From Candidatus Jorgensenbacteria bacterium RIFCSPLOWO2_01_FULL_45_25b (lineage in GTDB: Bacteria > Patescibacteriota > Minisyncoccia > UBA6257 > GWB1-50-10), in the NCBI GenBank assembly GCA_001781035.1, contig MFKK01000034.1, forward strand, positions 1 to 52,633: 52,633 nucleotides of DNA, read 5' to 3'. The position numbers and the translations under genes are program-made. Below the pieces are notes generated by a model, which saw only the letters and a list, made by a program, of their open reading frames with translations, was not told where the DNA came from and searched no databases. Positions 2,782 to 52,633 of this stretch are shown one piece after another. Within the stretch, counting starts at the first letter, position 1. Each line of letters opens with the position of its first letter.

Positions 2782-3729
2782 ATGAAAAACTCAAATAAAA
2801 GTATACAACAATACGTTTCTGATTTTCTTGACTGGATTGATGTGGAAAAGGGCCTAAGCTCAAAAACCCAGGAAAATTATTCGCGTTTCTTGAAAAGATT
2901 TTTTGTTTGGCTGGAAGAAAAGAAAATTCTTGATTTAAAGCCTCACGAACTTACTCCGGAACATATATGGGAGTACCGTATTTATCTTGCTCGCAAGACC
3001 CATTCTCGACGAACTGCGACCTCTTTAAAAAAATCTACTCAAAATTATTATCTCATCGTTCTTCGTTCGCTTCTCGCGTATTTTGTGGAGAGAAATATTC
3101 CCTCTCTTCCTCCTGAGAAGGTGAAGTTGGCACGGGATAAAGACGACAAGGAGATTCGTTTTCTGACCTTGGAGCAATTGGAGAAGCTTTTTTTTGTGCC
3201 CGATATTTCCTCTCCTGCAGGTGTTCGAGATAGGGCTATTTTGGAGACATTTTTTTCTACTGGAATGCGTGTTTCGGAGTTAGTTGCCCTGAATCTTGAT
3301 CAGGTAAGGTCGTCGCTCCATTTGGATTCGCTGGAACTTGGAATTGTGGGAAAGGGCGGCAGAACACGCACAGTGTATTTTTCAAAACGCGTGCTTTCCT
3401 GGATCGAAAAATACCTTGAGATGCGGGGTGATTTTGAAGAACCGCTTTTTATTAATTATCGTTCTCCGAAAACATCTTCCCGACGGCTTAGTGTTAAATC
3501 TATAGAGAATCTTGTGAAACGCTACGCTCTCCGAGCGGGTCTTCCTAAAAATACTACCCCACACGTGCTTCGACATTCTTTTGCTACTGATTTATTAAAT
3601 AAAGGTGTTGATATTAGAATTTTGCAAGAGTTTCTTGGTCATAAGAGTATTACTGCTACCCAGATATATACGCATGTCACGAGTAAAAAACTACGGGAGA
3701 TTCATAAGAAATTTCATGGTACTATATAG
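2782..3729 (+). CDS. XerC/XerD-family site-specific tyrosine recombinase (canonical)
   Basis: The full catalytic set is present: 'STGMRVSEL' (Arg), 'GKGGRTRTV' (Lys), 'HVLRHSFAT' (His-x-x-Arg) and 'LGHKSITATQIYTHV' (His, Tyr). Confidence 0.9.
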   Translation: MKNSNKSIQQYVSDFLDWIDVEKGLSSKTQENYSRFLKRFFVWLEEKKILDLKPHELTPEHIWEYRIYLARKTHSRRTATSLKKSTQNYYLIVLRSLLAYFVERNIPSLPPEKVKLARDKDDKEIRFLTLEQLEKLFFVPDISSPAGVRDRAILETFFSTGMRVSELVALNLDQVRSSLHLDSLELGIVGKGGRTRTVYFSKRVLSWIEKYLEMRGDFEEPLFINYRSPKTSSRRLSVKSIENLVKRYALRAGLPKNTTPHVLRHSFATDLLNKGVDIRILQEFLGHKSITATQIYTHVTSKKLREIHKKFHGTI

Positions 3730-3737
3730 AAGTATTT

Positions 3738-5192
3738 ATGACTAAAAAACACGTACATTTTGTGGGGGTTGGAGGCATAGGAATGAGCTCTCTTGCCCGA
3801 TGGTATTTGGCTCAAAATTGGGCTGTTTCGGGGTCTGACCTCTCCCCCTCTGAAATTACCAAAGAGCTTGAAAAGGAGGGCGTACGGGTCAAAATTGGGC
3901 ACAATTCCTCAAATTTGCCTCAAAAATTGAATGTTTTGGTGTATAGCAACGCTCTTCCGCAGAATACCCCTGAAATTGAGGGGGCGCGGAAATTGGGGGC
4001 TTCTGTTGTGAGCTATTCCGAGGCGTTGGGCGCTATTGCCAAAACATATACGACGCTTGCGGTTGCGGGGTCGCATGGAAAGAGCACGACGACCGCGCTT
4101 TTAGGTTTGTGTCTTCTTTCGGGCGGTTTTGACCCAACCGTTATTGTCGGAACGAAGGTGAAAGAGTTCGGCGGGAAAAATTTTCGTTTTGGAGGAGGCA
4201 AGTTTTTTGCGCTTGAGGCGGATGAGTATAAGGGAGCGTTTTTTCAATATGTTCCAACCTCTCTTATTATCACGAACATTGATAAGGAGCATTTGGATTT
4301 TTACAAGACGTTCGCGAACGTGAAGAGGGCGTTTTTGAGGTTTCTTGGGCAGGCGGTGCCGGGTGGGAAGTTTGTTTTCAATAGAGACGATGCTGTTTTG
4401 TGGGGATTACGGGCGCAGATTTTGCGTATCGCGAAAACGAAGCATTCGGAGATTCTTTGGTATTCGCTTCACTCCCCCATGGCGAAGAAGATTGAGCGAG
4501 TGTTGCGAATTCCCGGCAGGCACAATGTTTCAAACGCGCTCGCGGTTTATACGCTTGCCCGCGCGCTTGGCGTATTGGAGAGACGGATTTTTTCTGTCTT
4601 CCGAACATTTTCCGGTACGTGGAGGAGGATGGAGTACTGTGGCGATCTAAGGATCGCCACCGCGGATGAGCGCGGACTTGTACGCGGAAAAACGCGGAAA
4701 GAAACAAATGTTGAGGTGTACGATGATTACGCGCATCATCCGACGGAAATAAAGGCGACACTCTCTGCTTTTAAGCAATCCCCGTTAGAAGCAAAGCTTC
4801 TAACGGGGCAAGCCGCGAACGAACGCAAAAAGCGGAAGATTGTGTGCGTGTTTCAGCCTCATCAGGCGCATCGATTAAAATCGCTTTTTAAGGAGTTTGT
4901 TGATTCATTTCAAGATGCGGACGGACTTATTCTTCTTCCAACGTATCAGGTTCCTGGTCGGGATATTGCTTTGGACAAGCGATATTCATCCGAGGCGCTC
5001 GCGAAAGCAATCATCAGAAAGTATCCCCGAAAGCGTGTGTTGTATCTTGAAGACCCAAAAAGGCTGAAAGAGGAGATTTTCAATATGTTGCGCGGACTCC
5101 CCTCTTCGGACGGAGTTTTGGTTATGATGGGAGCGGGAGACATTTTTCAATTAACTTCGGAGTTGATTAAAAAAAGAATCTCTAATATCTAA
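3738..5192 (+). CDS. murC: UDP-N-acetylmuramate--L-alanine ligase
   Basis: Motifs 'HFVGVGGIGMS', 'GSHGKSTT', 'DDYAHHPTEI' and 'VFQPH' are present. The last codons and the stop lie inside a heptamer-repeat element. Confidence 0.9.
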   Translation: MTKKHVHFVGVGGIGMSSLARWYLAQNWAVSGSDLSPSEITKELEKEGVRVKIGHNSSNLPQKLNVLVYSNALPQNTPEIEGARKLGASVVSYSEALGAIAKTYTTLAVAGSHGKSTTTALLGLCLLSGGFDPTVIVGTKVKEFGGKNFRFGGGKFFALEADEYKGAFFQYVPTSLIITNIDKEHLDFYKTFANVKRAFLRFLGQAVPGGKFVFNRDDAVLWGLRAQILRIAKTKHSEILWYSLHSPMAKKIERVLRIPGRHNVSNALAVYTLARALGVLERRIFSVFRTFSGTWRRMEYCGDLRIATADERGLVRGKTRKETNVEVYDDYAHHPTEIKATLSAFKQSPLEAKLLTGQAANERKKRKIVCVFQPHQAHRLKSLFKEFVDSFQDADGLILLPTYQVPGRDIALDKRYSSEALAKAIIRKYPRKRVLYLEDPKRLKEEIFNMLRGLPSSDGVLVMMGAGDIFQLTSELIKKRISNI

Positions 5193-5324
5193 TATCTAAT
5201 TTCTAAATCCTAAACAATTTCAAAATATTAATCTCAAAAACGTAGTTTGATAGGCTCATTATAAAGTTTTGAATTTTGACATTTGAGATTGTTTAGAAAT
5301 TGGGGTTTAGAAATTAGAGATTTT
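5176..5324. repeat. AATTTCT-family heptamer-repeat hairpin element filling the murC / nuclease-gene spacer
   Basis: The left arm is 'aatctctaatatctaatatctaatttctaaatcctaaacaatttcaaaat'. The right arm is 'attttgacatttgagattgtttagaaattggggtttagaaattagagatt', an imperfect inverted repeat of the left. Confidence 0.8.
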
Positions 5325-5325
5325 T

Positions 5326-6087
5326 ATGTTGGATTATAAAAATGTTGAGGAATTTAAATCCCAATGCGGGTATGAAATTGACGGCGTGTGGTATCCGCGG
5401 GTGACGAAAATTGTTGATATTAAGTCAAAGCCCGCGCTGTATCGTTTTTACGGCGCGATGAAGAGTTATCAGGACGCCGAGCGCATGAAGGAGCAGTCCG
5501 CGATTGAGGGGACGCTTGTGCACGATACGATTGAGGCAATATTAACCGGACAGGAGCCTTCCATTCCTCTCTTAATCAAGCCTTCGGTGGACGCCTTTTT
5601 GAAGTTTTTAGAAGACAATTCCATTGAGGTTCAGACTCAATACGTTGAGTATCGTCTTTTTCATCCCACGCATCGCTACGCGGGAACGCTTGACGCTATC
5701 GCGACCATTCACGGCAAGACGGGAATTTTGGACATAAAAACGTCGCAGGCGATTTATAGGGATTATAACTTACAGACATCGGCCTATATGGCGGCGATGA
5801 TAGATAAGGTGCCGTCGCTTCAGGCGCGATGGATTTTGCGCATTGACCAGAATCAGAAGTGTCTTCAGTGCGGAGCCGTGTTGCGCACCAAGGGAGGGAA
5901 CGGAAAGATTCGCACCCAGTGGAATAATTATGTTATGCAGACGTGCGCGCATGAGTGGGGGCCGGCTCGCGGGCTCATTGAGCTTAAGGAGTTTCCTTTT
6001 TGGGAGAATGATTTTGAGGCGTTTTTAGGAGCGAAACGACTGTGGGAGTGGGAACATGAGGAGATGTTGAAGAAGATTGGGTATTAG
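5326..6087 (+). CDS. PD-(D/E)XK nuclease, RecB/Cas4-like
   Basis: The motifs 'GTLDAIA', 'GILDIKTS' (D...D-x-K) and 'QTSAY' (the Q-x-x-x-Y of RecB-family nucleases) are present. There are four Cys residues: one N-terminal, plus 'CLQCG' and 'TCAHEW'. Confidence 0.7.
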   Translation: MLDYKNVEEFKSQCGYEIDGVWYPRVTKIVDIKSKPALYRFYGAMKSYQDAERMKEQSAIEGTLVHDTIEAILTGQEPSIPLLIKPSVDAFLKFLEDNSIEVQTQYVEYRLFHPTHRYAGTLDAIATIHGKTGILDIKTSQAIYRDYNLQTSAYMAAMIDKVPSLQARWILRIDQNQKCLQCGAVLRTKGGNGKIRTQWNNYVMQTCAHEWGPARGLIELKEFPFWENDFEAFLGAKRLWEWEHEEMLKKIGY

Positions 6088-7724: not shown

Positions 7725-7748
7725 GCGTTTTATTATATCATATTATTT

Positions 7749-9200
7749 TTATATTAACGGTTCCTCTGTCTGGCTCTCGTGACTTTCCTTCTTTCCTTTT
7801 TTGCCGGTGATTGCGGATTTTTCCCGCGCGCTTCGGATGATACTTACCTCTTCTTCCATCATCAGGCGTTTCGCCTCTTCTATCGGCACCGCGAATTTTT
7901 TTCTTGAGGAGGCTATGATTTCTTCTCTTTCAGAGGCGTAGTTTGGTCTTGTTATGTTTAGGGTTTCCGCGGAGAAGGGGTCGTATGTTTCGCCGTCTAT
8001 CGTCATTTTTATGTAGAATTCACGGACGCCAAGGTTAATCATGTCTTTTTGGTCAAAGACGGGAACCATTTCCGGTTTCAATTTTATGGAATCCTCTCCT
8101 CCCACCCGAAAGATGACGATGGTTCCCACGTTTCCCAAGACTGCCGCCTGGACGCTTGATAGGAGTTGTTGCATGTATTGGTGCGCCATCGTAAGGCAGA
8201 GACCGTACTTTCTCGCTTCCGAGAGGAGGTTTTCAAATGTTTGGGTTACCACATTTTGAAACTCATCCACGTAAAGATAAAAATCGTGGCGTTTATTTTC
8301 CGGGAGCGCCGCGCGCGCCATGCCTGCTTGTTTTATTTTTGTTACGAACATGGAGCCGAAGAAGCTGGAGTTTTCCTCCCCTATTTTTCCTTTCGCGAGG
8401 TTGATGAGGACAATCTTTCTTTCATTCATGATTTTTTCCAAGTCAATTTTATTTTCCTTTTGTCCGAAGATGTTGCGGAGCATCGGGTCGGAAAGGAATT
8501 GTCCGAGCTTGTTTACCAGAGGGATGATGGCATCGGTATCAAATTTTTCCGACCAGTCCGCGAATTCAATCGCCCAGAAGCGTTTTACCATGTCGTCTTC
8601 AATGTATTCAACCACTTTTTGGCGGTAGTTTCTGTCCGTTAGCATTGAAATCATTCCGCGCATGGTCGCGTGGGGATAATCAAGAAGCGCGAGACAGGTG
8701 AAGCGGAAGACGTGTTCAAGGCGTGGCGTCCAATTCGCGCCGAACTGTTTTTCCAGTACCTCAATCAACCCTTGCGTGAGCTGGTGCTTGAATTCGGGCG
8801 CGATGTTTGAGAGCGGATTGAAGGCGACCGGGTAGTCTAGATCGGATGGGTCAATGATAATCACATCCTCCACGCGGTTTTTGGGAACGAAATCCAGTAT
8901 CGCTTCAATGAGGTCGCCGTGAGGGTCCATCACGCAGACGCCGTGACCGTAGGCGATATCCTGGCGAATCAAAAGTTCAATCAGTTTTGATTTTCCGACG
9001 CCGCTCTTCCCCACCATGTAGAGATGGCGTCTGCGGTCTACCCGCTTTAATCCGAAAACGAATTTTTTTTCTTCAAGCGCCGCCACATAGTTTGTTCTGC
9101 CGATGAAGGAGACTTCTTTCGGGTCGATTCTTCCATACATGGGAAGTTCCGGCGGGGGCGGAGCATATTTAATTCGTTGAATTTTTGAGCGTTCTTGCAT
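7749..9200 (-). CDS. Soluble VirD4/TraD/TraG-like (type IV coupling protein-like) ATPase
   Basis: Walker A 'VGKSGVGKS', 'DPHGDL', Walker B 'FYLYVDEFQN', 'RKYGLCLTMAHQYMQQL' and 'GNVGTIVIFRVG' are present. There is no N-terminal transmembrane segment. Confidence 0.75.
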   Translation of the reverse strand: MQERSKIQRIKYAPPPPELPMYGRIDPKEVSFIGRTNYVAALEEKKFVFGLKRVDRRRHLYMVGKSGVGKSKLIELLIRQDIAYGHGVCVMDPHGDLIEAILDFVPKNRVEDVIIIDPSDLDYPVAFNPLSNIAPEFKHQLTQGLIEVLEKQFGANWTPRLEHVFRFTCLALLDYPHATMRGMISMLTDRNYRQKVVEYIEDDMVKRFWAIEFADWSEKFDTDAIIPLVNKLGQFLSDPMLRNIFGQKENKIDLEKIMNERKIVLINLAKGKIGEENSSFFGSMFVTKIKQAGMARAALPENKRHDFYLYVDEFQNVVTQTFENLLSEARKYGLCLTMAHQYMQQLLSSVQAAVLGNVGTIVIFRVGGEDSIKLKPEMVPVFDQKDMINLGVREFYIKMTIDGETYDPFSAETLNITRPNYASEREEIIASSRKKFAVPIEEAKRLMMEEEVSIIRSAREKSAITGKKGKKESHESQTEEPLI

Positions 9201-25356: not shown

Positions 25357-25545
25357 AAGTATTTAATCTCTAATCTCTAATTTCTAATCTCTAAATAATC
25401 TCAAAACTCAAATATCAAATGTTTAAATACTTTTACGTTTTAATTTCTAATTTCTAATTCCTAATTTCTAAACAATATAAAAACTCAAATATCAAATTAA
25501 AACATTAGGTTCCTGCGCGACTTGAGGTTCCCCCCCCGTGCCTTT
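25357..25545. repeat. Two tandem AATTTCT-family elements filling the rplQ / rplM spacer
   Basis: 'aatctctaatctctaatttctaatctctaaataatctcaaaactcaaatatcaaat' is followed by 'taatttctaatttctaattcctaatttctaaacaatataaaaactcaaatatcaaat'. Confidence 0.8.
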
Positions 25546-27896: not shown

Positions 27897-28009
27897 AATT
27901 AGGCTTTAGGCTCTAGGCAACTAGGCTTTAGGCTTTAGGCTTTAGGCTTTAGGCTTTAGAAGCCGTACGCCTAGTCCCTAACGCCTAGCGCCTAACGCCT
28001 AGCGCCTTT
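27897..28009. repeat. TAGGCTT-family heptamer hairpin filling the rpsM / rpsK spacer
   Basis: 'taggctttaggctctaggcaactaggc(tttaggc)x4' is followed by the inverted arm 'gcctagtccctaacgcctagcgcctaacgcctagcgcc'. Confidence 0.85.
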
Positions 28010-28511: not shown

Positions 28512-28614
28512 TAGTTAGGCTTTAGGCTCTAGGCTCTAGGCAACTAGGCTTTAGGCTCTAGGCTTTAGAAGCCGTACGCCTATAGTCCCTAACGCCTAGC
28601 GCTTAACGCCTTTT
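28512..28614. repeat. TAGGCTT-family heptamer hairpin filling the infA / rpmJ spacer
   Basis: 'taggctttaggctctaggctctaggcaactaggctttaggctctaggctttagaagcc' is followed by 'gcctatagtccctaacgcctagcgcttaacgcc'. Confidence 0.85.
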
Positions 28615-37268: not shown

Positions 37269-37838
37269 ATGTTGTCGTATACGGATTTGAAACAGGGAAC
37301 GATTTTTGTGCGAGACGGAGAGCCGTGCCGTGTGTTGGAATACGAGTTTATTCGGATGCAACAGAGAAAACCCGTTGTTCAGCTAAAGATTCGGAAGCTG
37401 ATTTCGGGAAAGGCTATTCCCATGACGGCGTATCCCAGCGACACGTTTGAGGAGGCGGAAATTTCAACCGGAGAGGCGCGGTTTATTTATGAGAGCCGGG
37501 GAACATATTGGTTTCATCCTGTCGGGAATCCAAAAGAACGCTTTTCACTTACGGCGGATGCTATCGGAGAACAGGTGAAGTTTTTAAAACCCGGCATTCA
37601 GATTAAGGCTTTTCGTTTTGGTGAACAGATTATCGCCGTAGAATTGCCCGTGAAGATAGAGGTTGCGGTTACGGAGGCTCCTCCTTCGGTACGGGGCAAT
37701 ACCGCGCAGGGCGGGATGAAGACTGTTACGGTTGAGACGGGCGCGAAGGTTTTAACCCCCCTTTTTATTGAATCAGGAGACTTGATTCGGGTGAACACGC
37801 AGACGGGAGAGTATTCGGAGAGGGCGCAGAAGAGTTGA
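37269..37838 (+). CDS. efp: Elongation factor P
   Basis: The 189-aa protein begins 'DLKQGTIF..DGEPCRVLE' and contains 'VETG..V.VPLFI..GD.I.V.T..GEY..R'. Confidence 0.9.
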   Translation: MLSYTDLKQGTIFVRDGEPCRVLEYEFIRMQQRKPVVQLKIRKLISGKAIPMTAYPSDTFEEAEISTGEARFIYESRGTYWFHPVGNPKERFSLTADAIGEQVKFLKPGIQIKAFRFGEQIIAVELPVKIEVAVTEAPPSVRGNTAQGGMKTVTVETGAKVLTPLFIESGDLIRVNTQTGEYSERAQKS

Positions 37839-37903
37839 AAGTTGAAAGTTGAAAGTTGAAAGTTGAAAGTTGAAAGTTGAAAGTTGAAAGTTGAAAGTTG
37901 ACA
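37834..37903. repeat. Tandem array (GTTGAAA)x9 plus GTTGACA; contains the efp stop codon
   Basis: The array is a perfect 7-nt periodicity over 63 nt. The efp TGA (37836-37838) lies inside the first unit. Confidence 0.95.
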
Positions 37904-37941
37904 ACATTTTTCTGATTATTTATCAGGTGTCAAGTTTATTT

Positions 37942-39927: not shown

Positions 39928-40430
39928 GGGCGAGTATATCAGGCAATAGCTCCGCTTTTGCGGAGAGGAAAGTCCGGACACTCGGCCTTATGCGCGGCAC
40001 AAGGAAATTCTAATTTCTAATCTCTAAACCGACCGAAATTCGCAGTCAGTTTAGAATTTAAGATATTAGATATTAGGATTTTCTCGTGCTGTGCGTGAGG
40101 CAAGGGTAGCGGGTAATGCCCGTCGTCCGCGAGGATAGAGGTGCGAACAGAGACGTCTGGGCGCGAAAGCGCCTAGAGAGCCCAATCCTAAGCTAGATGG
40201 CTTAATTCCGCCATAGGGAGAAAAAAGCGGAAGTGAAACGGTCCCGACGTTTCAGTCGGGACTCCGACCTCGTAAGAGTGTCGGATGCTAAATCCTTACT
40301 TGAGTGCAAGGTCGCGCCAGCAGTGCTCCGCACTGGTTGGAGAACCGCTTGATCTTGAGGGCAACCGAGAGACCAGATAAATTATTGCCGCTCTTTTGAG
40401 TACAGAATCCGGCTTACGATATACTCGCCC
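39928..40430 (+). ncRNA. rnpB: RNase P RNA (bacterial type A-like) with insertions
   Basis: P1 pairs 'GGGCGAGUAUAUC' with 'GAUAUACUCGCCC'. The P4 strands are 'GAGGAAAGUCCGGAC' and 'ACAGAAUCCGGCUUA'. A terminator 'CCCCCUUCGGGGGUUUUGUUUU' follows. At ~503 nt it is longer than the usual 350-400 nt. Confidence 0.9.
40003..40083. repeat. AATTTCT-family hairpin inserted inside RNase P RNA
   Basis: 'ggaaattctaatttctaatctctaaac ... gtttagaatttaagatattagatattaggattttc' sits on the stem GCACAAG/CUCGUGC, shortly 3' of the P4 5' strand. Confidence 0.8.
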
Positions 40431-40447
40431 CCTTCGGGGGTTTTGTT

Positions 40448-43440: not shown

Positions 43441-44545
43441 ATTTATTTAACGCTGTAATTCCTGGAAGAGTTTTACCGGAGAGATAATCAAGCATGGCGC
43501 CACCACCCGTCGAAATGTATAGATTTCGCAAATCCGAAATCCGAAATCCGAAATCCGAAACTAATTTGATTGAAGCAGTGGTTTCGCCACCGCCGACAAG
43601 CGAAAAGGCGGTTTTATTTTTGATGATAGCCTGCCACACGCCTTTTGTGCCTTTCTCATAGCCGTGTTTTTCAAACATGCCTATCGGGCCGCTCCAGATA
43701 ATGGTTTTTGATTCGGAGATGATGTTTGCGAACTTTTGAATTGTTTTTGGACCAATATCAAGAATTTTGTTGTCGTGAAACTTAATATCTTCGGGCAGAA
43801 GAATGTTGTTGTAAAGGAGATAGTCTTTAATATCTTTGACCTCATCAACGATGGAGTTCTTGACGTCTTCGCCCCGAGCTTTTAAGAAGGTGTTTGCCAA
43901 TCCCCCGCCAATCAGAATGGTGTTCGCTTTTTCTTTGAAATACTTAATAATATCGCCTTTATCTTTTATTTTTATACCTCCCAAGATGAGGGTGAGCGGA
44001 GGTTCGTATGTTTTCACCGCGCGCTCCAAATGTTCTATTTCTTTTTCCAAAAGCAATCCTCCGTAGAAGGGCAGAAATTTTGTGATGGCGCACACAGAGG
44101 CGTTTTCACGATGGGAGACGGCGAAGGCGTCGTTTATGTAGATGTCGCCGAGACCAGCCAGTTCTTTCGCAAAGTTTATATCGTTTGCTTCTTCGCGAAA
44201 GTCAAAGCGGAGGTTTTCAAAGAGAACTATTTGAGTTTTTGTTTGTACTTCCCTCCTTTCGGGATTACAATAAGGGAAGAAGCCTACTTTTGAACCGACT
44301 TTTTTCGCGAGCAATTTGGCGAACGGTCTTAGGGAGAGTTTTTTGTCTTTTCCCTCGGGTCTGCCCCGGTGGCTTATGATGTGAATACGACACCCAAGCT
44401 TTTGCAGAAAGCGTATTGTCGGGATGGTGGAATCCAAGCGGTACATTTCTTCTTTTGTCTTTGTGTTGATGTTTAAGTCAACGCGCAAAAGGCATGTTTT
44501 TCCCGCTATGTTTTCGGGGTTGATGGCTGAAAGGTAGTTAATCAT
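43439..44545 (-). CDS. pgk: Phosphoglycerate kinase, with a heptamer repeat in the C-terminal region
   Basis: Motifs 'RVDLN', 'SHRGRP' and 'STGGGA' are present. I placed the start at ATG 44545 ('MINYLSA...'), not at the ORF-track 44623. Confidence 0.9.
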   Translation of the reverse strand: MINYLSAINPENIAGKTCLLRVDLNINTKTKEEMYRLDSTIPTIRFLQKLGCRIHIISHRGRPEGKDKKLSLRPFAKLLAKKVGSKVGFFPYCNPERREVQTKTQIVLFENLRFDFREEANDINFAKELAGLGDIYINDAFAVSHRENASVCAITKFLPFYGGLLLEKEIEHLERAVKTYEPPLTLILGGIKIKDKGDIIKYFKEKANTILIGGGLANTFLKARGEDVKNSIVDEVKDIKDYLLYNNILLPEDIKFHDNKILDIGPKTIQKFANIISESKTIIWSGPIGMFEKHGYEKGTKGVWQAIIKNKTAFSLVGGGETTASIKLVSDFGFRISDLRNLYISTGGGAMLDYLSGKTLPGITALNK

Positions 44546-45900: not shown

Positions 45901-46037
45901 GATCTTTTGTCTACCGGCATATCCTACTTTCCCAGTCAAAAAAGACAAGTATCATCAGACGAAAACGCTTTCACTTCTGTGTTCGGAATGGGAACAGGTG
46001 GATCTCGTTTACGCTAAACACCGGCAGGCAAAAGATC
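45901..46037 (-). rRNA. rrf: 5S rRNA with an extended terminal helix
   Basis: The reverse complement contains 'CCACCUGUUCCCAUUCCGAACACAGAAGUGAAAGCG'. The ends 'GAUCUUUUGCCUGCCGG' and 'CCGGUAGACAAAAGAUC' pair. Confidence 0.9.
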
Positions 46038-46450
46038 TAAAATGTTTTGTTGAAAGTAAACTTTTTAAGGTAGAAGTTTATCCTCTGCGTGAGGTATAAA
46101 AGTGTATTGCTCGAATAAGCAAGGTGGGATTTATTAGTACTCCTCGGCTCCATCCCTTGCGGGACTTCCACCTAGAGCCTATCAACCTGGTAGTCTTCCA
46201 GGAATCCATGATGCATTATCTTGGGAGGGGCTTCGTGCTTAGATGCCTTCAGCGCTTATCCCTTCCGAACATAGCTACCCAGCGATTCACCTGGTGGCAA
46301 AGCTGGTAGACCAGAGGTTCGTTCAACCCGGTCCTCTCGTACTAGGGTCAACTTCCCTCAAGCATCGTAACGCCGACAGTAGATAGAGACCAACCTGTCT
46401 CACGACGGTTTGAACCCAGCTCGCGTACCACTTTAATTGGCGAACAGCCA

Positions 46451-46483
<33 letters not shown>

Positions 46484-46497
46484 GTGAGCCGACATCG

Positions 46498-47331
46498 CAT
46501 CTTCTCTATTATTACTAATAGCGTGGACTATATCTTCATCCTTTTTATCTTAAAAAGGAGCTGACGTGTTAGCTGGAAACCATGTTTCCAACTCTGCCTC
46601 GTTGCAACCCAATGCATAAGGCAAGTCTCTACGGGGTTATAACTCAATTTTATATCTCATTGAAGGAATGATTTCTTTATCTAGTATTTTTCGCAATATA
46701 GCAAGTGAAGATTTTAGAAAACGCAACCGATAATACTGTTTATCTTTATTAAGAGTCGCTTTTAGATTGAGCTTTTGAAGTGCTCGCACTAACTTTTTCT
46801 GATCTTGAATGCTAAATTGTTGAGTATTCAGATATATGTCATTGGTTTTACAACGACTTCCATCATCCATGAACCAGACTGCTAAACTTGTTGGATCTAG
46901 GGTAAGGTTTGCAGGAATTACCTTTTTCGTTTTTCTATAAAAGAGTTGATGCAGAGCGGTTAGCTCTGATAACTGCTTTGAGTAGAAACGATAGGCAATT
47001 CTTGTTCCATTACTTTTCCGCATTTTGGGCGGAGAACCGGAAATATTTTTTAATATTTTATATTTCCAATCAACATATTCTTTTTGGGCAAAAGAATGAT
47101 TGATTTCCAAAAGAGCATGTTTTCTTTTTGGAATGATTCTTAGATAACCATCTCCCAAAAGCGTTCCAACAATCAATGATTTTTGTTGTTGAGTTAAACT
47201 TCCCACGGTATTGTCCATATAATGATTCTATCATTTCACTGTATGGAGTTCACCGTTATAAGTCAGATTTTTCTTTGATCGCATCACAGCGATCGGGAAT
47301 GAGATTACTCTCATTGCACCCCAATGTGTTA
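46498..47331 (-). mobile_element. Intron (group I-like) in 23S domain V carrying a LAGLIDADG ORF
   Basis: On the plus strand the conserved string 'gagccgacatcg|aggtgcc' is interrupted by ~834 nt. Joining the flanks restores the 'GGCACCUCGAUGUCGGCUC' consensus, at about E. coli position 2500. Confidence 0.8.
46637..47218 (-). CDS. LAGLIDADG homing endonuclease (double-motif)
   Basis: Both motifs are present, 'LIVGTLLGDGYL' and 'LAVWFMDDGS'. The gene lies wholly within the 23S intervening sequence. Confidence 0.9.
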   Translation of the reverse strand: MDNTVGSLTQQQKSLIVGTLLGDGYLRIIPKRKHALLEINHSFAQKEYVDWKYKILKNISGSPPKMRKSNGTRIAYRFYSKQLSELTALHQLFYRKTKKVIPANLTLDPTSLAVWFMDDGSRCKTNDIYLNTQQFSIQDQKKLVRALQKLNLKATLNKDKQYYRLRFLKSSLAILRKILDKEIIPSMRYKIEL

Positions 47332-47952
47332 AGGTGCCGAGCTCCGTCGTCGATGTGGACTCTCGGACGGAACCAGCCTGTTATCCCCGGAGTAGCTTTT
47401 ATCCGTTATCTCCGACCTTCCTATAAAGATTCGTCGGGTCGCTAAGCTCTGCTTTCGCACCTGCGCGACTTGTATGTCTTGCAGTTAAGCTGGCTTTTGC
47501 CTTTACGCGTCCAGCCCGATTTCCATCCGGGCTAAGCCAACCTTAATAGACTCCTCCGTTACTTTTTGGGAGGAATCCGCCCCAGATAAACTGCCCACCA
47601 GGCACTGTCTCCACGGCGTTTTGCGCCGCAGGTTAGATATTAACAACTAAAAGATGGGTATTTCACTGACGGCTCCATCCCATCCGAAAACAGGACTTCA
47701 AAGCCTCCCCACTATGCTACGCATCCAGACATTAATACCAATACCAAGCTACAGTAAAGCTTCCGGGGTCTTTTCGTCTTACTGTCGGTATCCCGCGTCT
47801 TCACGGGAATCGCATTTTCATCGGGCTCCTCGTTGAGACAGTTCTCCAGTCGTTACACCTTTCGTGCGCTCCGGAACTTACCCGGAAAGGAATTGCGCTA
47901 CCTTAGAACGGTTATAGTTACCGCTGACATTGACGAGGGCTTCGGACAGTAA

Positions 47953-48160
47953 GCCGCACCTCACTACGGTTCGGTGCGTACAGAAATAAATAGAAATTGA
48001 TAGAAATATGCTTCGCGAAATTAACCCCACCCCTCCCTCCCCTAAGACTTAGGGGAGGGAGACGGAGGGAGAGGTTAGTCTCTATTGAATTTCTATGAAT
48101 TTCGTCCCGAATAAAGTGAGGGACATATTTCTGTCGCATCGAACGATAGTGAGATGCGAC
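47953..48160. other. ~190-nt expansion segment at the tip of 23S helix 68 (E. coli ~1870)
   Basis: The conserved flanks 'GGUAAC..CCCUCGUC' and 'GGUUAACGAUGG' are separated by ~215 nt here, against ~28 nt in E. coli. The insert is a long imperfect hairpin with the apical stem 'cccctccctcccctaagacttaggggagggag' and the inverted arms 'acagaaata..' / '..tatttctgt'. Confidence 0.75.
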
Positions 48161-48830
48161 CTCCATCGTTAACCTTCTCGCATCGGTCAGGTGTCACCCC
48201 CTATACATCCTCTTACGAGTTCGCAGGGAGCTGTGTTTTTGTTAAACAGTCGCCAGAGAAACTTTCGCTGCGGGCGTGCTTACGCGCGCCAGGCCTTATC
48301 CCGAAGTTACGGCCGCTTTTTTGCCGAGTTCCTTAACGAGGACTCACCCGTTCCCCTTGGGCTTCTCGCCCTATCCACCTGTGGCGGTTTCCGGTACGGA
48401 TTCCATACTTCAACCTTAGAGGTTTTTCTTGAACGCGCGCTCTATCAACTTGCGTCGACACGTATGCCAACACTTGCCTCTACTCTGGAGTTTGCGACTA
48501 AACGCAGAGACGCGGATTTGCCTACGCCTCACTCTCGAGTCAAGGATGCCAAACCATTAAGACACTTAATGTACTGCGCGTTGTCCCCCCATCGGACTAT
48601 GAAATACGGAAGGGCTGGAATATTAACCAGCTGTCCATCAGCTTCGGCTTTCGCCATTGCCTTAGGGCCGCCTCACCCTCCGCCGATTCGCGTTGCGGAG
48701 GAAACCTTGGATTTTCGGGGAGCCGGTTTTTCACCGACTTTGTGATTACTCATGCCAGCATTCTCTCTTCCTAACGCTCCAGTCGCCCTCACGGATCAAC
48801 CTTCAGCGCATTAGGAATGCTCTCCTACCA

Positions 48831-49008
48831 CGCCTCGCGCTTTGCGCGAGGAAATCCTAAGCTCTAAATTCTAAATCCTAAACAATATCAAAACTCAAAT
48901 GACCGAAACTCAAAACATTTTGTTTTAAGTGTTTGGATTTTGAATTTAAAATTTGTTTAGAGTTTAGAGATTAGAATTTAGAATTTCCTTGTGCAAAGCA
49001 CAAGACAT
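48831..49008. repeat. Intervening sequence at 23S helix 45 built from an AATTTCT-family hairpin
   Basis: Between the conserved 'CCGAAG' and 'GGUAGGAGAGC' blocks lie three hairpins: CUUGUGC-UUU-GCACAAG, a ~140-nt heptamer-repeat hairpin, and CCUCGCGC-AAA-GCGCGAGG. Confidence 0.8.
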
Positions 49009-49684
49009 TCGCATCTTCGGTACCTTGCTTAGCCCCGGTAAATTTTCGGCGCCATCATCCTCGAATAGTGAGTTGTTACACACTCTTTAAAGGATGGCTA
49101 CCTCTGAGCCAACCTCCTATCTGTTTATGGATAATGACCACCTTTCACACTTAGCAACTCCGATACCCTTGCGGAGATCGGAGTCCCGACTTCACGTCGG
49201 GAGAATTTAGGGACCTTAGATGGCGATCTGGGCTCTTCCCCTCTCGACCACGGAGCTTAGCCCCCGCAGTCTGACTGCTAATGAACAACTCATGGTATTC
49301 GGAGTTTGATTGATCGTCCGAGCTTGCGCCCAGTGACGATCATCCAGTGCTCTACCCCCACGAGTCTATTTAATTAACGCTAGCCCGAAAGCTATTTCGG
49401 AGAGAACCAGCTATTACCAAGTTCGATTAGTTTTTCGCTCCTTACCCCAATTCATCCGAGAGTTTTGCACGGCTCACCGGTTCGGACCTTCATTCGATTT
49501 TACTCGAACTTCATCCTGATCAGGGCAAGCTCACCTGGTTTCGGGTCTTACACGTACTGCTTAATCGCCCTATTAAGACTCGCTTTCGCTACGCCTCCTC
49601 CCGCTTGGCGGGATTAGACTTGCAACACATGCAAACTCGCTGGCTCATTCTTCAATAGGCACGCCGTCACTCGCCGTTGCACAG

Positions 49685-49846
49685 CAGCGGAATTTCTAAT
49701 TTCTAATCTCTAATTTCTAAACAAACCCAAATGATAGAATGACTAATGACTAAAACAATTTAAGTTTAGACATTACACATTTTGACATTAGAAATTTATT
49801 AGATATTAGTAATTAGGAATTAGTTATTCCGATGCTGCGCATCGGT
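49685..49846. repeat. Intervening sequence at 23S helix 25, hairpin cassette copy 1
   Basis: The cassette reads 'gcacagcagcgg aatttctaatttctaatctctaatttctaaac ... gatagaatgactaatgactaaaacaattta ... attagaaatttattagatattagtaattaggaatt ... ccgatgctgcgc'. Confidence 0.85.
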
Positions 49847-50202
49847 TGAGCTCCGGCTCTTTGTAAGTAAGTGGTTTCAGATACTATTTCATCGCCCTCA
49901 CCGGGCTGCTTTTCACCTTTCCCTCACGGTACTGGTTCACTATCGATCACCAAATGTATTTAGCCTTACCAGATAGTACTGGCAGATTCCCTCAAGGTTA
50001 TCTTGGCCTTGAGGTACTCAAGAACAAGAACGATTGGTCACTTTGTTTTCGCCTACGAGGCTTTCACTCACTATGGCTGTCCTTTCCAGAACATTTGACT
50101 AACAAAGTGATTTGTAACCAATTACCAAATAAACTTCCGTAGCTCCGGAAATTTCCGAAGCTTCAGAAGTTTTTTGGAATGTTCTCGCCTTACAACCCCC
50201 GC

Positions 50203-50374
50203 CGCTGCACAGCAGCGGAATTTCTAATCTCTAATTTCTAATCTCTAATTTCTAAATAAATCCGAATGATAGAATGACTAATGACTAAAACAATTTACGT
50301 TTAGACATTTAAGCATTTTAACATTAGAAATTTATTAGATATTAGTAATTAGAAATTCCGATGCTGTGCATCGA
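50203..50374. repeat. Hairpin cassette copy 2 in 23S domain I (E. coli ~270-280)
   Basis: It has the same base stem, heptamer arms and central 'gatagaatgactaatgactaaaacaattta' core as 49685-49846. On the rRNA strand it lies just 3' of 'GUAGCGGCGAGCGAA..CAGCCC'. Confidence 0.85.
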
Positions 50375-50474
50375 CAGGTTTGGGCTGTTCCCTTTTCGCT
50401 CGCCGCTACTTGGGGAATACAAATTTGTCTCTTTTCCACCAGGTACTTAGATGTTTCAGTTCCCTGGGTGCGCT

Positions 50475-50631
50475 CCACTGCGTAGCAGCGGAATTTCTAA
50501 TTTCTAATATCTAATTTCTAAATAAATCCGAATGATAGAATGACTAATGACTAAAACAATTTACGTTTAGACATTAGAAATTTATTAGATATTAGTAATT
50601 AGGAATTAGTTATTCCGATGCTACGCACTGG
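50475..50631. repeat. Hairpin cassette copy 3 in 23S domain I (E. coli ~140)
   Basis: It is the same cassette, lying between 'CCGAAUGGGAAAACCC..' and 'GGGAACUGAAACAUCUAAGUA' on the rRNA strand. Confidence 0.85.
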
Positions 50632-51120
50632 TTACCGCGTTTTACACGGCAGGGTTTTCCCATTCGGAAATCTCCGGATCAAAGGTTGCTACACACCTCC
50701 CCGAAGCTTATCGCAGTTACGCCACGTCCTTCATCGCCATTTGGTGTCAAGGCATCCACCACCTACCCTTAACTTGCTTACATGAGCAATTTCACTTTTA
50801 TCTTACATATATGATATGCAAGAAACTTCTACCTTAGAAAGTTTACTTTCTTAACTGCCTATTTCGCCTGCTTGCGGGGCGAAATGAGGCTATGAAGTTT
50901 TCAAAGTTCAAGAAAGCATCCATACCGTCGGAGCGCCAATGTTGAGGTCGGCTTGTTTCGGCCGCAACATTGAGGCTCTTTTTCTGTCTTTGTTTCGCGT
51001 GTGAAGAAATAAAAATCCCGCCAGGTCTTGGCGGGCCGACACATCAATAATATAGGGCTTTCTTCACCCGTGTCTCCCACCTTGATATGTATTGGCTTTT
51101 TTCATTAGCAGTAAGTACCA

Positions 51121-51148
51121 ATTCTATTCATTATTTGAGGCTTGTCAA
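51121..51148 (-). promoter_or_regulatory. Candidate sigma-70-type promoter of the 23S-5S operon
   Basis: On the minus strand: TTGACA (51148-51143), a 16-nt spacer, then TAGAAT (51126-51121). It lies ~325 nt upstream of the mature 23S 5' end. Confidence 0.5.
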
Positions 51149-51200
51149 GCGGTGATAATCCCTTTTTTATCTAGCTTGGGAATGGCTTTGGCGAACAGGC

Positions 51201-51824
51201 TTATTTACGCGGTTTTTCGTCCGTAATAAGAGGCACGAAACGAAAGCCAGCGTACTCTTTTTTCTTGAATTCTTTTGCAGATTTTTTTTCAATTTGGATG
51301 ATGCTTTCTCCCACAGGAGCAACGACATACCCGCCTATTTTTAGTTCGGATTTCCATGCCGATGAAACGCGAACGCACGTTGCCGCCGCGATGATTTTGT
51401 CGTATGGCGCGCGCTCTTTATATCCTTTCGCTCCGTCGCCTTTTATTATTTTTATGTTCTCGTTTTGATATGTTGAAAGATTTTTTTCCGCTTGCCTCAT
51501 GAGTTCCTCTATTCTTTCAATTGTTGTAACGCTTCCCTCTTTTCCGACAAGTTTTGAGAGAAGCGCGGTTTGCCATCCGGAGCCGGTTCCGATTTCCAAA
51601 ATCTTTTCTCCTTGTTTCGGTTCCAAGAGTTCCAGCATGAACGCCACGACAAGCGGTTGGGAGATTGTTTGTCTGTAACCAATCGGAAGCGCCTGATTTA
51701 GATAGGCATGCTTCTTCATTTCTTCCGGTAGAAAATCTTTTCGGTCAACGTATTTGAACGCTTCTATAATTGAGGACGTTTTTAGGTAGCCTTCGGAGAT
51801 GAGTTGTTGAATAAGAGTTTCCAT
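51201..51824 (-). CDS. pcm: Protein-L-isoaspartate O-methyltransferase
   Basis: Motifs 'QTISQP', 'ILEIGTGSGWQTA' and 'YDKIIAAA' are present. Confidence 0.85.
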   Translation of the reverse strand: METLIQQLISEGYLKTSSIIEAFKYVDRKDFLPEEMKKHAYLNQALPIGYRQTISQPLVVAFMLELLEPKQGEKILEIGTGSGWQTALLSKLVGKEGSVTTIERIEELMRQAEKNLSTYQNENIKIIKGDGAKGYKERAPYDKIIAAATCVRVSSAWKSELKIGGYVVAPVGESIIQIEKKSAKEFKKKEYAGFRFVPLITDEKPRK

Positions 51825-51953
51825 AATAAACTATGCGAACCTACAAACGCTCGCTAATCTACAAATGAATGCGAATCTACAAATATCTACGAAACCTACG
51901 AATTTTTATATTGAAAGAAGGATGCCGGGAAGTTGTGAGTTGAAGGTTACTTA

Positions 51954-52325
51954 TCAGGCAATTTTTAGAACTTCTTTAATTTTTGTAATGTCTTTGTCGT
52001 GTCTTGCGACCGCGTGCGAGATGGCCGGGATTTCTTCTTGAAGGTCTCGCAAGATGGTTATCATTTCGTCTTGATTTTGAAGAATCTGCGCGGTTGAATC
52101 ATCTACTTTCTTTTCCAGTTGATCAAATCGAGTATCATGTTCCATCGCTTTTTTCGCAAGCACATCAATTGCCCTTTCGTGATTATCAAACCTCTTGTCA
52201 TGACTATCAAACCTTCCGTCGTGCTCAAGCATCTTCTTGGCAAGCAGATCAATCGCTTTATCTTGAGCGTCAAATCTTTCATCATGCTCCTCCAGTTTAT
52301 GTAAGATTTTTTCTTCGTTGTTCAT
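51954..52325 (-). CDS. Coiled-coil protein with repeated 'HD-x-RFD' motifs, hypothetical
   Basis: Four motif copies are present: 'EHDERFDAQDKAIDLLAKK', 'EHDGRFDSHDKRFDNHERAIDVLAKK' (two copies) and 'EHDTRFDQLEKKVD'. Confidence 0.5.
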   Translation of the reverse strand: MNNEEKILHKLEEHDERFDAQDKAIDLLAKKMLEHDGRFDSHDKRFDNHERAIDVLAKKAMEHDTRFDQLEKKVDDSTAQILQNQDEMITILRDLQEEIPAISHAVARHDKDITKIKEVLKIA

Positions 52326-52381
52326 GAGGGAATTATATCATATTTTAAGAACTCTGGTTCGCAGGTTGTTTTCAGCTTTTA

Positions 52382-52603
52382 CTAAAGCTTTTTTTGATTC
52401 TTCTTTGGATATTTTTTTTGAAAATACTTTTTGCCCGCTTGCCATAGGTATACATCTATTTCTTTGTAGGTATATCTTTCCAGATTAAAATATTTTATAA
52501 ATTTGTCTATTATTTTTTTAAATTTTGAATAATCTTTTAGATATTGGTTTGTAAAATTGTGAAATTTGCCAAAATCTGAATTTTCTTTCCAATGAACTAA
52601 CAT
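52382..52603 (-). CDS. Hypothetical Lys/Tyr-rich protein in an AT-rich stretch
   Basis: This is an ORF call only, with no recognised motif. The composition shifts towards AT at the window end. Confidence 0.3.
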   Translation of the reverse strand: MLVHWKENSDFGKFHNFTNQYLKDYSKFKKIIDKFIKYFNLERYTYKEIDVYLWQAGKKYFQKKYPKKNQKKL

Positions 52604-52633
52604 TTTTTCTACAAAATAATCATAAATTGGATA

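Follow-up and report, generated by a model that had tools for sequence, protein, structure and literature searches.

A family of GC-clamped, heptamer-armed hairpin cassettes at helix tips of 23S rRNA and other stable RNAs

The 23S rRNA gene in the stretch of DNA analysed here (52,633 nt in full, hereafter the window) contains three paralogous copies of one hairpin cassette, located at the tips of helices H10, H15 and H25. We consider it fairly probable that these cassettes represent an intervening sequence (IVS)-type family of helix-tip insertions that is copied within genomes and probably carries an RNase III-type processing site. The family reaches well beyond what the first-pass annotation of this DNA had described, extending to H45, RNase P RNA, 16S rRNA and many environmental contigs, of which the nameable ones are from CPR bacteria. 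The features in the window are listed in Table 1.

Table 1. Location of the 23S rRNA gene, the cassettes, their relatives and associated features in the window
Feature	Position	Strand	Remarks
23S rRNA gene	46115..50779	(-)	4665 nt; Rfam LSU_rRNA_bacteria, 2155.9 bits, model 1-2925
Cassette in H10 terminal loop	50475..50631	(-)	157 nt; 138 nt vs 8 in model 151-178
Cassette in hairpin at LSU model 274-297	50202..50374	(-)	173 nt; 164 nt vs 5 in model
Cassette in H25 terminal loop	49674..49845	(-)	172 nt; insertion within hairpin at model 573-600
Diverged fourth member in H45	48833..49005	(-)	~157 nt extra between E. coli 1162 and 1186
835-nt insertion, E. coli 2502/2503	46497..47332	(-)	Insertion map; ORF 46637-47218 inside
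Pre-23S processing stem, 3' strand	46052..46079	(-)	Inverted repeat I10, 28 bp
Pre-23S processing stem, 5' strand	50823..50850	(-)	Inverted repeat I10
RNase P RNA gene (class A)	39931..40431	(+)	Rfam RF00010, 94.9 bits, E 1.3e-29
Heptamer-armed, GC-clamped hairpin within RNase P RNA	39986..40100	(+)	156 nt vs 11 in model
Intergenic heptamer-armed hairpin without GC clamp	5169..5330	(+)	Inverted repeat I1; dG -45.3, z -7.0

Three near-identical cassettes had been described in the 23S gene by the first-pass annotation, and all three were recovered. A 30-nt core occurs exactly three times, once per cassette, compared to 0 expected (100 shuffles). The copies share 90-92% pairwise identity over aligned positions, and the indels in their arms are of 7 nt. 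With its limits refined to take in both flank palindromes, every copy folds into one long hairpin with a dG of -57 to -62 kcal/mol and a z-score of about -9 (H10, dG -56.6, z -9.1; model 274-297, dG -58.9, z -8.5; H25, dG -61.5, z -8.8). A search with a 24-nt core (GAATGACTAATGACTAAAACAATT) returned 0 matches in genome contigs and 0 in metagenome contigs, and the exact cassette was found solely in assemblies of one population.

The 23S gene, which belongs to an uncultured groundwater (CPR) bacterium, is 4665 nt long, compared to the 2925 positions of the LSU model. An E. coli 23S insertion map was built from blastn segments, and the covariance-model alignment proposed in the first-pass annotation was run. 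In this alignment all three segments are insertions at native helix tips, with 138-164 nt in place of terminal loops of 5-8 nt, as expected for IVSs, which form extra stems of approximately 100-200 nt. The sites proposed earlier agree with the alignment in two cases, namely H25 and a position near E. coli 275, which corresponds to the hairpin at model positions 274-297. This hairpin, which we take to be helix 15, is absent from E. coli. The third, proposed near position 140, has to be moved, as the alignment places it in the loop of H10 and not in H9. The closest named relative with a full 23S gene, the related Harrisonbacteria genome L148, has no heptamer cassettes and carries unrelated inserts at the same helices. 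Both the helix-tip position relative to the LSU model and the unrelated sequence in L148 indicate that the segments are not homologous native helices.

Many short contigs break within or beside the cassettes, as repeats tend to cause, and in contig L006 the sequence changes to that of a different organism's 23S immediately before the first cassette, which would be expected if the three copies were an assembly artefact. However, contigs ERZ27254767, ERZ27254763, ERZ4903072 (1 mismatch), ERZ4903055 and JGI 3300002502 agree with the window across the cassettes that they cover, and a further scaffold, ERZ28563625, spans two cassettes. Since the five independent assemblies, from different samples and pipelines, are concordant, the cassettes are not assembly artefacts, and copies that are 8-10% apart do not represent a collapsed repeat. 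Overall, it is extremely improbable that the copies are an artefact or native helices.

The cassettes are sporadically distributed, as is typical of IVSs. For example, a close strain (L003) is 99.7% identical in the flank yet carries a different family member at H10, and L148 has its unrelated inserts. The L003 hairpin was considered as a copy of the H45 member of the window and rejected, its likeness being at family level only. Look-ups via a spurious ORF within the 23S gene and via a variant of the upstream PCMT protein (protein-L-isoaspartate methyltransferase; Pfam PF01135) yielded no new strain variants.

Further relatives of the cassettes were identified in the window. The H45 member has heptameric arms and the clamp UCUUGUGC-UUU-GCACAAGG / CCUCGCGC-AAA-GCGCGAGG, shares 66-71% identity with the three cassettes and folds with a dG of -73.5 (z -12). 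The RNase P RNA gene, which scores slightly below the RF00010 gathering score of 100, contains a hairpin (dG -53.2, z -8.5) whose 5' end, GCACAAGGAAAUUCUAA, is identical to that of the H45 member. The covariance-model alignment is unreliable around this hairpin, and a manual alignment to E. coli M1 RNA tentatively places it between P5 and P7. In two other contigs (L222 and L175), the insertion helix of the RNase P RNA is P12. A total of 25 period-7 arrays were found in the window, compared to 0.13 in Markov shuffles, while periods 5, 6 and 8-11 yielded 0-2 arrays, and 16 of the 20 period-7 arrays outside rRNA are wholly or mostly non-coding, an excess similar to that of the STRR repeats. The H45 copy, the RNase P RNA hairpin and the period-7 arrays in intergenic DNA had been missed by the first-pass annotation. 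The coding share of the window is 87%.

Members of the family share a common design, with a GC-rich base clamp of 15-17 bp, AU-rich arms of imperfect 7-nt repeats (5' CUAAU-type, 3' AUUAG-type) and a variable apex. The clamp is conserved and pseudo-symmetric and arises from pairing between two short interrupted palindromes, for example CCAGUGC-GUA-GCAUCGG and CCGCUGC-UAC-GCAGUGG in the H10 cassette. A comparison of 50 distinct cassettes shows covariation at both outer positions of the central triplet (A-U 17, U-A 18 and G-C 6 at one; A-U 20, U-A 15 and C-G 7 at the other), indicating selection on flank-to-flank pairing. The central pair is U.G in 36 of these 50, but this U.G is absent from the window's own copies. 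In the window copies, one clamp pair occurs as G.U, A-U or G-C, and the next pair shows a compensatory change from C-G to U-A. The common non-Watson-Crick position noted earlier in the base stem is real, and the suggestion of a common handle gains from the retention of the GC-rich base stem across many contigs, with covariation. Each flank alone is a perfect palindrome, whereas the flank-to-flank duplex retains U.G and A.C (or A.G / U.C). Simple selection for one RNA duplex does not explain the perfect flank palindromes, which may point to an alternative fold, a three-hairpin structure with a four-way junction, or to recognition of the element as DNA. In having paired palindromic ends, the cassettes resemble MITEs and REPINs, which carry such ends or terminal inverted repeats.

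Within-genome copying is supported by the sequences of three independent genomes. The 23S gene of a Falkowbacteria genome (L073) has its own cassette at H25 and H45 with 97% identity, and that of another MAG (L097) has its own at H15, H63 and H78 with 96-99% identity. Across the three genomes, cassettes are 90-99% identical within a genome and 65-80% identical between genomes. The earlier proposal that one cassette was copied to several helices is therefore strengthened, but its dating as recent is not, since copies that differ by 8-10% indicate that the copying was not very recent.

A scan for the clamp/arm junction retrieved 75 matches, 70 of which are in the sense strand of stable-RNA genes (56 in 23S, five in 16S and nine in RNase P RNA), always in variable peripheral helices. 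About four matches are chance-like, leaving 70 of ~71 genuine clamp-bearing copies in stable-RNA genes, all 70 of them sense. The occupied sites are H9/10, H15, H25, H45, H63 and H78 in 23S, h9/10 and h17 in 16S, and P12 in RNase P RNA. When only the heptamer arm was used, at least 120 loci were retrieved, and three were within 23S genes among the matches listed. Crude hairpin scoring around all heptamer-pattern matches was non-discriminating, and selected loci were inspected by hand instead. Cassette-like hairpins in six contigs (L102, L096, L068, L060, L047 and L119) were rejected as members, being intergenic and clampless, with no RNA gene at those positions in Rfam. Contig L173 contains a putative 276-nt x2.6 tandem array. 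Almost all clamp-bearing members thus have sense orientation and lie at variable helix tips of 23S, 16S or RNase P RNA genes.

This distribution bears on whether the cassettes could be non-autonomous mobile DNA of the MITE/REPIN type, with palindromic ends read by a transposase in trans and with persistence in stable-RNA helix tips, among the few neutral sites of a very compact genome. Sharp ends, two short palindromes in inverted arrangement and the hairpin form of the whole element correspond to the REPIN/MITE design, and the palindrome of each flank stays perfect even at positions where the RNA duplex is thereby less well paired. Several near-identical copies occur per genome at sites without flanking homology, their content varies between close strains, and the window is densely coding. 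Transposon-mediated 23S inserts are also known in Nostoc and Deinococcus (PMC2672173). However, a DNA transposon would also be expected to hit intergenic DNA, in both orientations, and the intergenic heptamer hairpins lack the clamp. No target-site duplication is evident, the host sequence beside the three copies having no common direct repeat, and a transposase was found neither in association with the cassettes in the window nor among the 10 window proteins scanned. The covariation of the central triplet, which reflects selection on flank-to-flank pairing, also argues against mobile DNA, and we regard this explanation as doubtful.

As IVS-type insertions, the cassettes would form part of the precursor transcript. 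A dimeric nuclease specific for double-stranded RNA, most probably RNase III, would act on the ~70-bp duplex and its dyad-symmetric clamp, and a cut at the clamp would remove the hairpin while the RNA pieces would be kept together by the host helix; alternatively, the hairpin may be merely tolerated as a protruding extension. Copying would take place at the DNA level within a genome, from one tolerant helix tip to others, and the copies may then be partly homogenised. The arms could lengthen or shorten by slippage in 7-nt steps, drawing on the genome-wide tendency toward period-7 arrays. Cleavage of the cassettes by RNase III is plausible by analogy, as the 23S gene is bracketed by a 28-bp stem in the classical RNase III arrangement (the two I10 strands are complementary at 96%) and IVSs are defined as extra stems of 100-200 nt that are excised by RNase III (PMC8708148). 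Short non-intron inserts at known IVS sites of CPR 23S genes have likewise been judged to be probably IVSs (PMC11270868). H25 and H45 are among the classical IVS sites (helix 9, 25 or 45), whereas H10, H15, H63 and H78 lie outside this set. The cassettes have a plain hairpin structure, and no match to Intron_gpI was found within the window at the gathering score. The 835-nt insertion is intron-like and outside the cassette family; its ORF is a LAGLIDADG_2 gene (Pfam annotation of the ORF in L002) with homologues in the thousands. A tentative assignment of the window to Harrisonbacteria draws on the similarity of this homing endonuclease alone. Scanning of 10 window proteins, one of which (2782-3729) has a phage-integrase domain, revealed no RNase III gene. 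Transposition, gene conversion and RNase III processing, all raised in the first-pass annotation, are indistinguishable on sequence alone.

The sites outside the classical set and the lack of an RNase III gene among the proteins scanned speak against the IVS-type explanation, as do two further points. Cuts left unreligated in RNase P RNA or 16S rRNA would fragment these molecules, which is tolerable in principle but has few precedents, and the flanks are perfect palindromes despite the U.G and A.C appositions in the duplex. Fragmentation of RNase P RNA and 16S rRNA would be avoided if the hairpins were expansion segments retained as protruding rods in mature 23S, 16S and RNase P RNAs, similar to those in eukaryotic, Asgard or mycobacterial ribosomes. 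The clamp would then only insulate the host fold from the AU-rich arms, or serve as a protein-binding handle. Retention is consistent with the location of all sites in universal variable regions of the three RNAs and with the extended helices already reported in CPR RNase P RNAs, where large extensions are drawn within the mature RNA (PMC8172020). A mismatch about every 7 bp in the arms could also weaken recognition by double-strand RNA nucleases. On the other hand, RNase III typically acts on near-continuous duplexes such as this one of ~70 bp, the conserved dyad symmetry of the clamp is more reminiscent of the site of a dimeric enzyme than of a passive stem, and a conserved functional handle in the arms or apex is hard to reconcile with the change in sequence between close strains. 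Retention is possible, although we would not expect it.

The symmetry of the clamp, with wobble-type appositions at +/-4 around the central U.G, could also suit a new type of RNA splicing, in which a dimeric endonuclease would cut both strands at the clamp and the host RNA would be religated, in a manner similar to archaeal bulge-helix-bulge introns in rRNA. The strictly sense orientation would agree with this, as would the occurrence of the element in RNAs that are essential and single-copy, 16S and RNase P RNA among them. The archaeal-type motif consists of two 3-nt bulges with a 4-bp helix between them, at exon-intron boundaries, whereas the clamp has 1x1 appositions 7-9 bp apart, no 3-nt bulges and no bulge-helix-bulge motif, and the central U.G is missing from the window's own copies. 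To our knowledge, no splicing endonuclease has been reported in CPR bacteria. Splicing is considered very unlikely. It is also unlikely, though less so, that the cassettes are a distinct CPR element specific to stable RNAs, inserted or retained only in sense orientation within rRNA and RNase P RNA genes, with its own dyad-symmetric site for a dimeric endonuclease and mobile between helices and RNA genes. Since such an element would have its own processing site, the host RNA would be freed of the insert, via fragmentation or even religation, and the two flank palindromes, whose perfection comes at the expense of the RNA duplex, would act as recognition or switching elements.

[quoted passage not shown] The short inserts, left as probable IVSs, now gain a defined anatomy of clamp, heptamer arms and apex. 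One cassette is able to occupy several helices of one gene, and its design recurs in 23S, 16S and RNase P RNA. Testable questions now include the way in which the inserts spread, the possible assembly of CPR ribosomes and RNase P from RNA fragments, and the identity of the enzyme that reads the conserved symmetric clamp. In practice, these repeats break assemblies in rRNA operons and push RNase P RNA under standard detection thresholds.

Compared to known systems, the cassettes are most readily placed beside the classical 23S IVSs of Salmonella, Yersinia, Campylobacter, Leptospira, Coxiella and alpha-proteobacteria, in which 100-200-nt stems replace the tips of peripheral helices. Shared features are the occupation of H25 and H45, the lack of an ORF, the sporadic presence with content varying between close strains, and a classical processing stem around the 23S gene. 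In contrast to classical IVSs, a single cassette is found at several helices of the gene, among them the non-classical sites H10 and H15 and, in relatives, H63 and H78; cassettes also occur in 16S rRNA and RNase P RNA and have arms of heptamer repeats; and conservation of the base clamp extends to many contigs, of which the few nameable ones are from several CPR lineages. Many uncharacterised CPR rRNA inserts of <200 bp have been reported at 23IS2 and 23IS4, which correspond to known IVS sites, in the same organisms and genes as the cassettes (Tsurumaki et al., 2024; PMC11270868). The words "hairpin" and "repeat" are absent from that study, which reports neither a shared sequence design nor paralogous inserts within one gene, and describes neither the clamp nor a connection with RNase P RNA (PMC11270868). 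No description of the shared cassette design was found in the literature.

[quoted passage not shown] They differ from the cassettes in repeat sequence and phylum, are without a reported GC clamp or defined cassette, and, as far as we know, have not been reported in rRNA. REPINs, BIMEs and hairpin MITEs (Correia, ERIC, RUP) resemble the cassettes in their length of 100-170 nt, single long hairpin, palindromic ends and many copies per genome, and transcripts of some of them, such as Correia elements, are cut by RNase III. These elements are intergenic and occur in both orientations, whereas clamp-bearing cassettes are nearly confined to stable-RNA genes, in sense orientation and with no visible target duplication. 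Finally, the helices that carry cassettes are those that carry rRNA expansion segments in eukaryotes, Asgard archaea and some bacteria, with ES5 at H15, ES7 at H25, ES15 at H45, ES27 at H63 and ES31 near H78-79. The expansion segments of one rRNA, however, are not copies of each other and are retained by definition, whereas the cassettes are copies.

Sequence in excess of the E. coli 23S rRNA was mapped by blastn segments against the E. coli gene, and the cassettes were placed with the Rfam LSU alignment (see the table). Three near-identical cassettes are present in the 23S rRNA gene, as the first-pass annotation had claimed. A 30-nt core occurs exactly three times (none expected from 100 shuffles), the copies can be aligned end to end with 90–92% identity at aligned positions, and every copy folds into a single long imperfect hairpin (dG -57 to -62 kcal/mol, z about -9). 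The indels in the arms are 7 nt long, and one copy also lacks a 16-nt stretch near the apex. The site previously put at about E. coli position 140 is to be corrected to H10, where the alignment locates this copy. The second copy lies in a hairpin, missing from E. coli, that we take to be helix 15. The segments are insertions and not native helices, as indicated by their placement at helix tips and by a related Harrisonbacteria 23S gene (L148), in which the same helices hold unrelated, non-repetitive sequence. The non-Watson-Crick position noted in the base stem of all copies corresponds to a U.C apposition in the clamp, and the earlier interpretation was broadly right overall. The 23S gene also contains two expansions without heptamers and a large insertion carrying a LAGLIDADG_2 ORF. 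This ORF has thousands of homologues, the closest named ones being from Candidatus Harrisonbacteria, and the group I intron model gave no match at gathering score in the insertion.

Features of the window; limits of the H10, H15 and H25 cassettes include both flank palindromes
Feature	Position	Strand	Remark
23S rRNA gene	46115-50779	minus	4665 nt against a model of 2925 positions
5S gene	45912-46025
Cassette, H10	50475-50631		Terminal loop of hairpin at model 151-178; 138 nt against 8 in model; H9 intact just upstream
Cassette, H15	50202-50374		Hairpin at model 274-297; 164 nt against 5 in model
Cassette, H25	49674-49845		Within H25
Fourth hairpin, H45	48833-49005		GC clamp and heptamer arms; 66-71% identity to cassettes
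Non-heptamer expansion	47944-48169	minus	About 190 nt between E. coli 1854 and 1889
Non-heptamer expansion	50105-50175	minus	About 60 nt inside H18; palindromic hairpin
835-nt insertion	46497-47332	minus	At E. coli 23S 2502/2503
LAGLIDADG_2 ORF	46637-47218		Within the 835-nt insertion
RNase P RNA gene	39931-40431	plus	94.9 bits; Rfam gathering score 100
Fifth member	39986-40100		Inside RNase P RNA gene
Intergenic array hairpins	5169-5330; 27898-28007		No GC clamp
Period-7 arrays (examples)	1284-1307; 25360-25471; 27898-28007; 28514-28568; 37830-37904; 43526-43562
PCMT-type methyltransferase gene	51201-51824	minus	Neighbour of 23S
18-nt imperfect tandem repeat	51833-51893		ATGCGAATCTACAAATGA-like, about 3 copies; just upstream of PCMT gene

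An assembly artefact was considered as a source of the three copies. For comparison, contigs with either the PCMT (protein-L-isoaspartate methyltransferase) gene next to the 23S or the intron ORF were taken from other assemblies, all of them Rifle-series aquifer metagenomes. ERZ27254767, ERZ27254763 and ERZ4903072 share 100%, 100% and 99.98% identity with the window across the entire 23S gene. JGI 3300002502 (L005) is 100% identical and spans all three copies, contig L008 is 100% identical and spans two, and ERZ4903055 is 100% identical from 50473 down, spanning the H15 and H25 copies. A collapsed repeat is excluded because the copies differ among themselves by 8–10%, and with the agreement of these assemblies the three copies are not an artefact. 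Many short contigs end at cassettes, and contig L006 (2307-2988) is 99.7% identical to the window until the conserved 23S sequence before H10 and then continues as the insert-free 23S of another organism, probably a chimeric assembly. These repeats therefore disturb assembly.

The set of three stood but was incomplete, as members in H45 and in the RNase P RNA gene had been overlooked. Both share the 5' end GCACAAGGAAAUUCUAA. The inserted hairpin brings the score of the RNase P RNA gene slightly below the gathering score, and the default scan of the window also overlooked this gene. The window contains 25 period-7 tandem arrays, against a mean of 0.13 in Markov shuffles and 0–2 arrays for each other period from 5 to 11. 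Outside the rRNA there are 20 such arrays, 16 of which are wholly or mostly non-coding, the non-coding share of the window outside the rRNA being 13%. The array families (AATTTCT, TAATCTC, TTAGGCT, AGTTGAA and AAATCCG) are mostly intergenic; some arrays immediately precede start codons, and a hairpin separates two ribosomal-protein genes.

The junction between GC clamp and heptamer arm is common to all rRNA members. A scan of metagenome_contigs with this junction (GTGCNNNGCACGGAAWTYCTAA) retrieved 75 matches on 70 contigs, representing 57 distinct cassettes, mostly of 94–199 nt. Matches were located in 23S genes in sense orientation (56), 16S genes (5), RNase P RNA genes (9) and a 23S 3' trailer (1); one further match is a real cassette with no host gene assigned, and three without a partner flank are apparent chance matches. 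In 23S genes they mostly follow E. coli 130-135 (H9/H10) or 517-542 (H25), with fewer at H15, H45 and H78; the 16S sites are near E. coli 180 and near 455, and the RNase P RNA sites are in P12 (L222, L175) and the P15-17 region (L185). Three AATTTCT-type heptamers, scanned against genome_contigs, matched at least 120 loci in many phyla; about a third of the matches listed are from Patescibacteria, and only three of those listed are inside a 23S gene. Of the 75 junction matches, 70 are on the sense strand of stable-RNA genes, and most heptamer arrays by themselves lie outside such genes. It is the clamp that goes with stable RNAs. Both possible fates of the cassettes, excision and retention, would fit an origin as mobile elements. 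That the orientation is strictly sense and that the cassettes are restricted to stable RNAs disfavours a plain DNA transposon.

The three 23S genes with heptamer matches belong to a Falkowbacteria genome (L073; H25 and H45, 97% identity between sites), a MAG labelled Gammaproteobacteria (L097; H15, H63 and H78, 96–99% identity) and a Berkelbacteria genome (L056; single copy at H78). Identity between genomes is only 65–80%, indicating that in three unrelated genomes (that of the window, L073 and L097) a genome-specific cassette was copied to several helix tips. Helix 78 (E. coli 23S 2084-2227), which bears a cassette in L097 and L056, belongs to the L1 stalk region; ribosomal protein L1 is said to be missing in some CPR lineages. 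Inside H25 of another 23S gene (L173, 7080-7804), a 276-nt unit that includes a complete cassette occurs 2.6 times in a row with 100% identity between repeats, which points either to genuine tandem amplification or to a loop in the assembly. The cassettes also turn over quickly between strains. Contig L003 has a different heptamer hairpin at H10 (7725-7890), where the contig ends, and its flanking gene is 99.7% identical to that of the window. Contig L007 (window 50333-52633) has only two SNPs over 2301 nt, both inside the H10 copy, and one turns it into the state of the H15 and H25 copies, a change that may stem from gene conversion or from confusion of reads between the repeats. Overall, the cassettes sit at helix tips as insertions, are copied within genomes and evolve by 7-nt slippage.

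The clamp consensus over 50 distinct cassettes is 5' CCGUGC-NNN-GCACGG and 3' CCGCGC-NNN-GCGCGG. The two flanks pair together, and the outer triplet positions covary, with A-U 17, U-A 18 and G-C 6 at one and A-U 20, U-A 15 and C-G 7 at the other. Of the 50 cassettes, 36 have U.G at the centre. The counts of flank-to-flank pairing are biased upward, since the 3' flank was identified as the segment complementary to the 5' one; the triplet accounts for only 3 of the 13 scored positions. Changes of this kind are also seen among the three copies of the window (G.U, A-U and G-C at one pair, C-G to U-A at the next). Each flank alone is a perfect interrupted palindrome, as seen in L153-L222, with a single symmetric pair distinguishing one palindrome from the other, so the duplex has U.G and A.C appositions symmetric about the centre. 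These are present in 39 and 34 of the 50 cassettes, respectively; the window copies instead have A.G and U.C. Within the 3' flank, the internal pair covaries, being C-G (34), U-A (11) or U.G (5), and never C.A. Judging from these patterns, conservation appears to extend to the long duplex as well as to both small hairpins. Possible reasons are an alternative fold with a four-way junction, a site for a dimeric protein, or recognition at the level of DNA.

On sequence grounds, the cassette is a helix-tip insertion of the intervening-sequence (IVS) or the expansion type. The cassettes probably behave as IVSs: the duplex of about 70 bp with a dyad-symmetric base would be a fit target for cutting by a dimeric double-strand RNA nuclease. 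A classical 28-bp stem surrounds the 23S rRNA of the window. Retention of the cassettes as expansion segments is a serious alternative to excision. The design is unexpectedly regular and widespread, and its clamp is symmetric.

In a full-text literature search, no description was found of the shared cassette design, of its within-gene paralogy, of the conserved symmetric clamp, or of the occurrence of the cassette in all three RNAs (23S, 16S and RNase P). Inserts have been reported in 82% of CPR 23S genes, with many uncharacterised ones below 200 bp at classical IVS sites termed 'probably IVS'; that paper uses neither of the words 'hairpin' and 'repeat' (Tsurumaki et al., 2024; PMC11270868). 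In CPR bacteria, RNase P RNAs that have greatly extended helices and fall under Rfam thresholds have been reported, as have rRNA genes that are mostly unlinked (Lui et al., 2021; PMC8172020). The window is alike in the latter respect: no 16S gene is present upstream of its 23S gene (50780-52633), and its rRNA genes are therefore unlinked, as in most CPR bacteria. By definition, IVSs are extra stems of 100–200 nt excised by RNase III (PMC8708148). The small IVSs of other bacteria are without homologues elsewhere, and transposon-borne 23S inserts are known from Nostoc and Deinococcus (PMC2672173).
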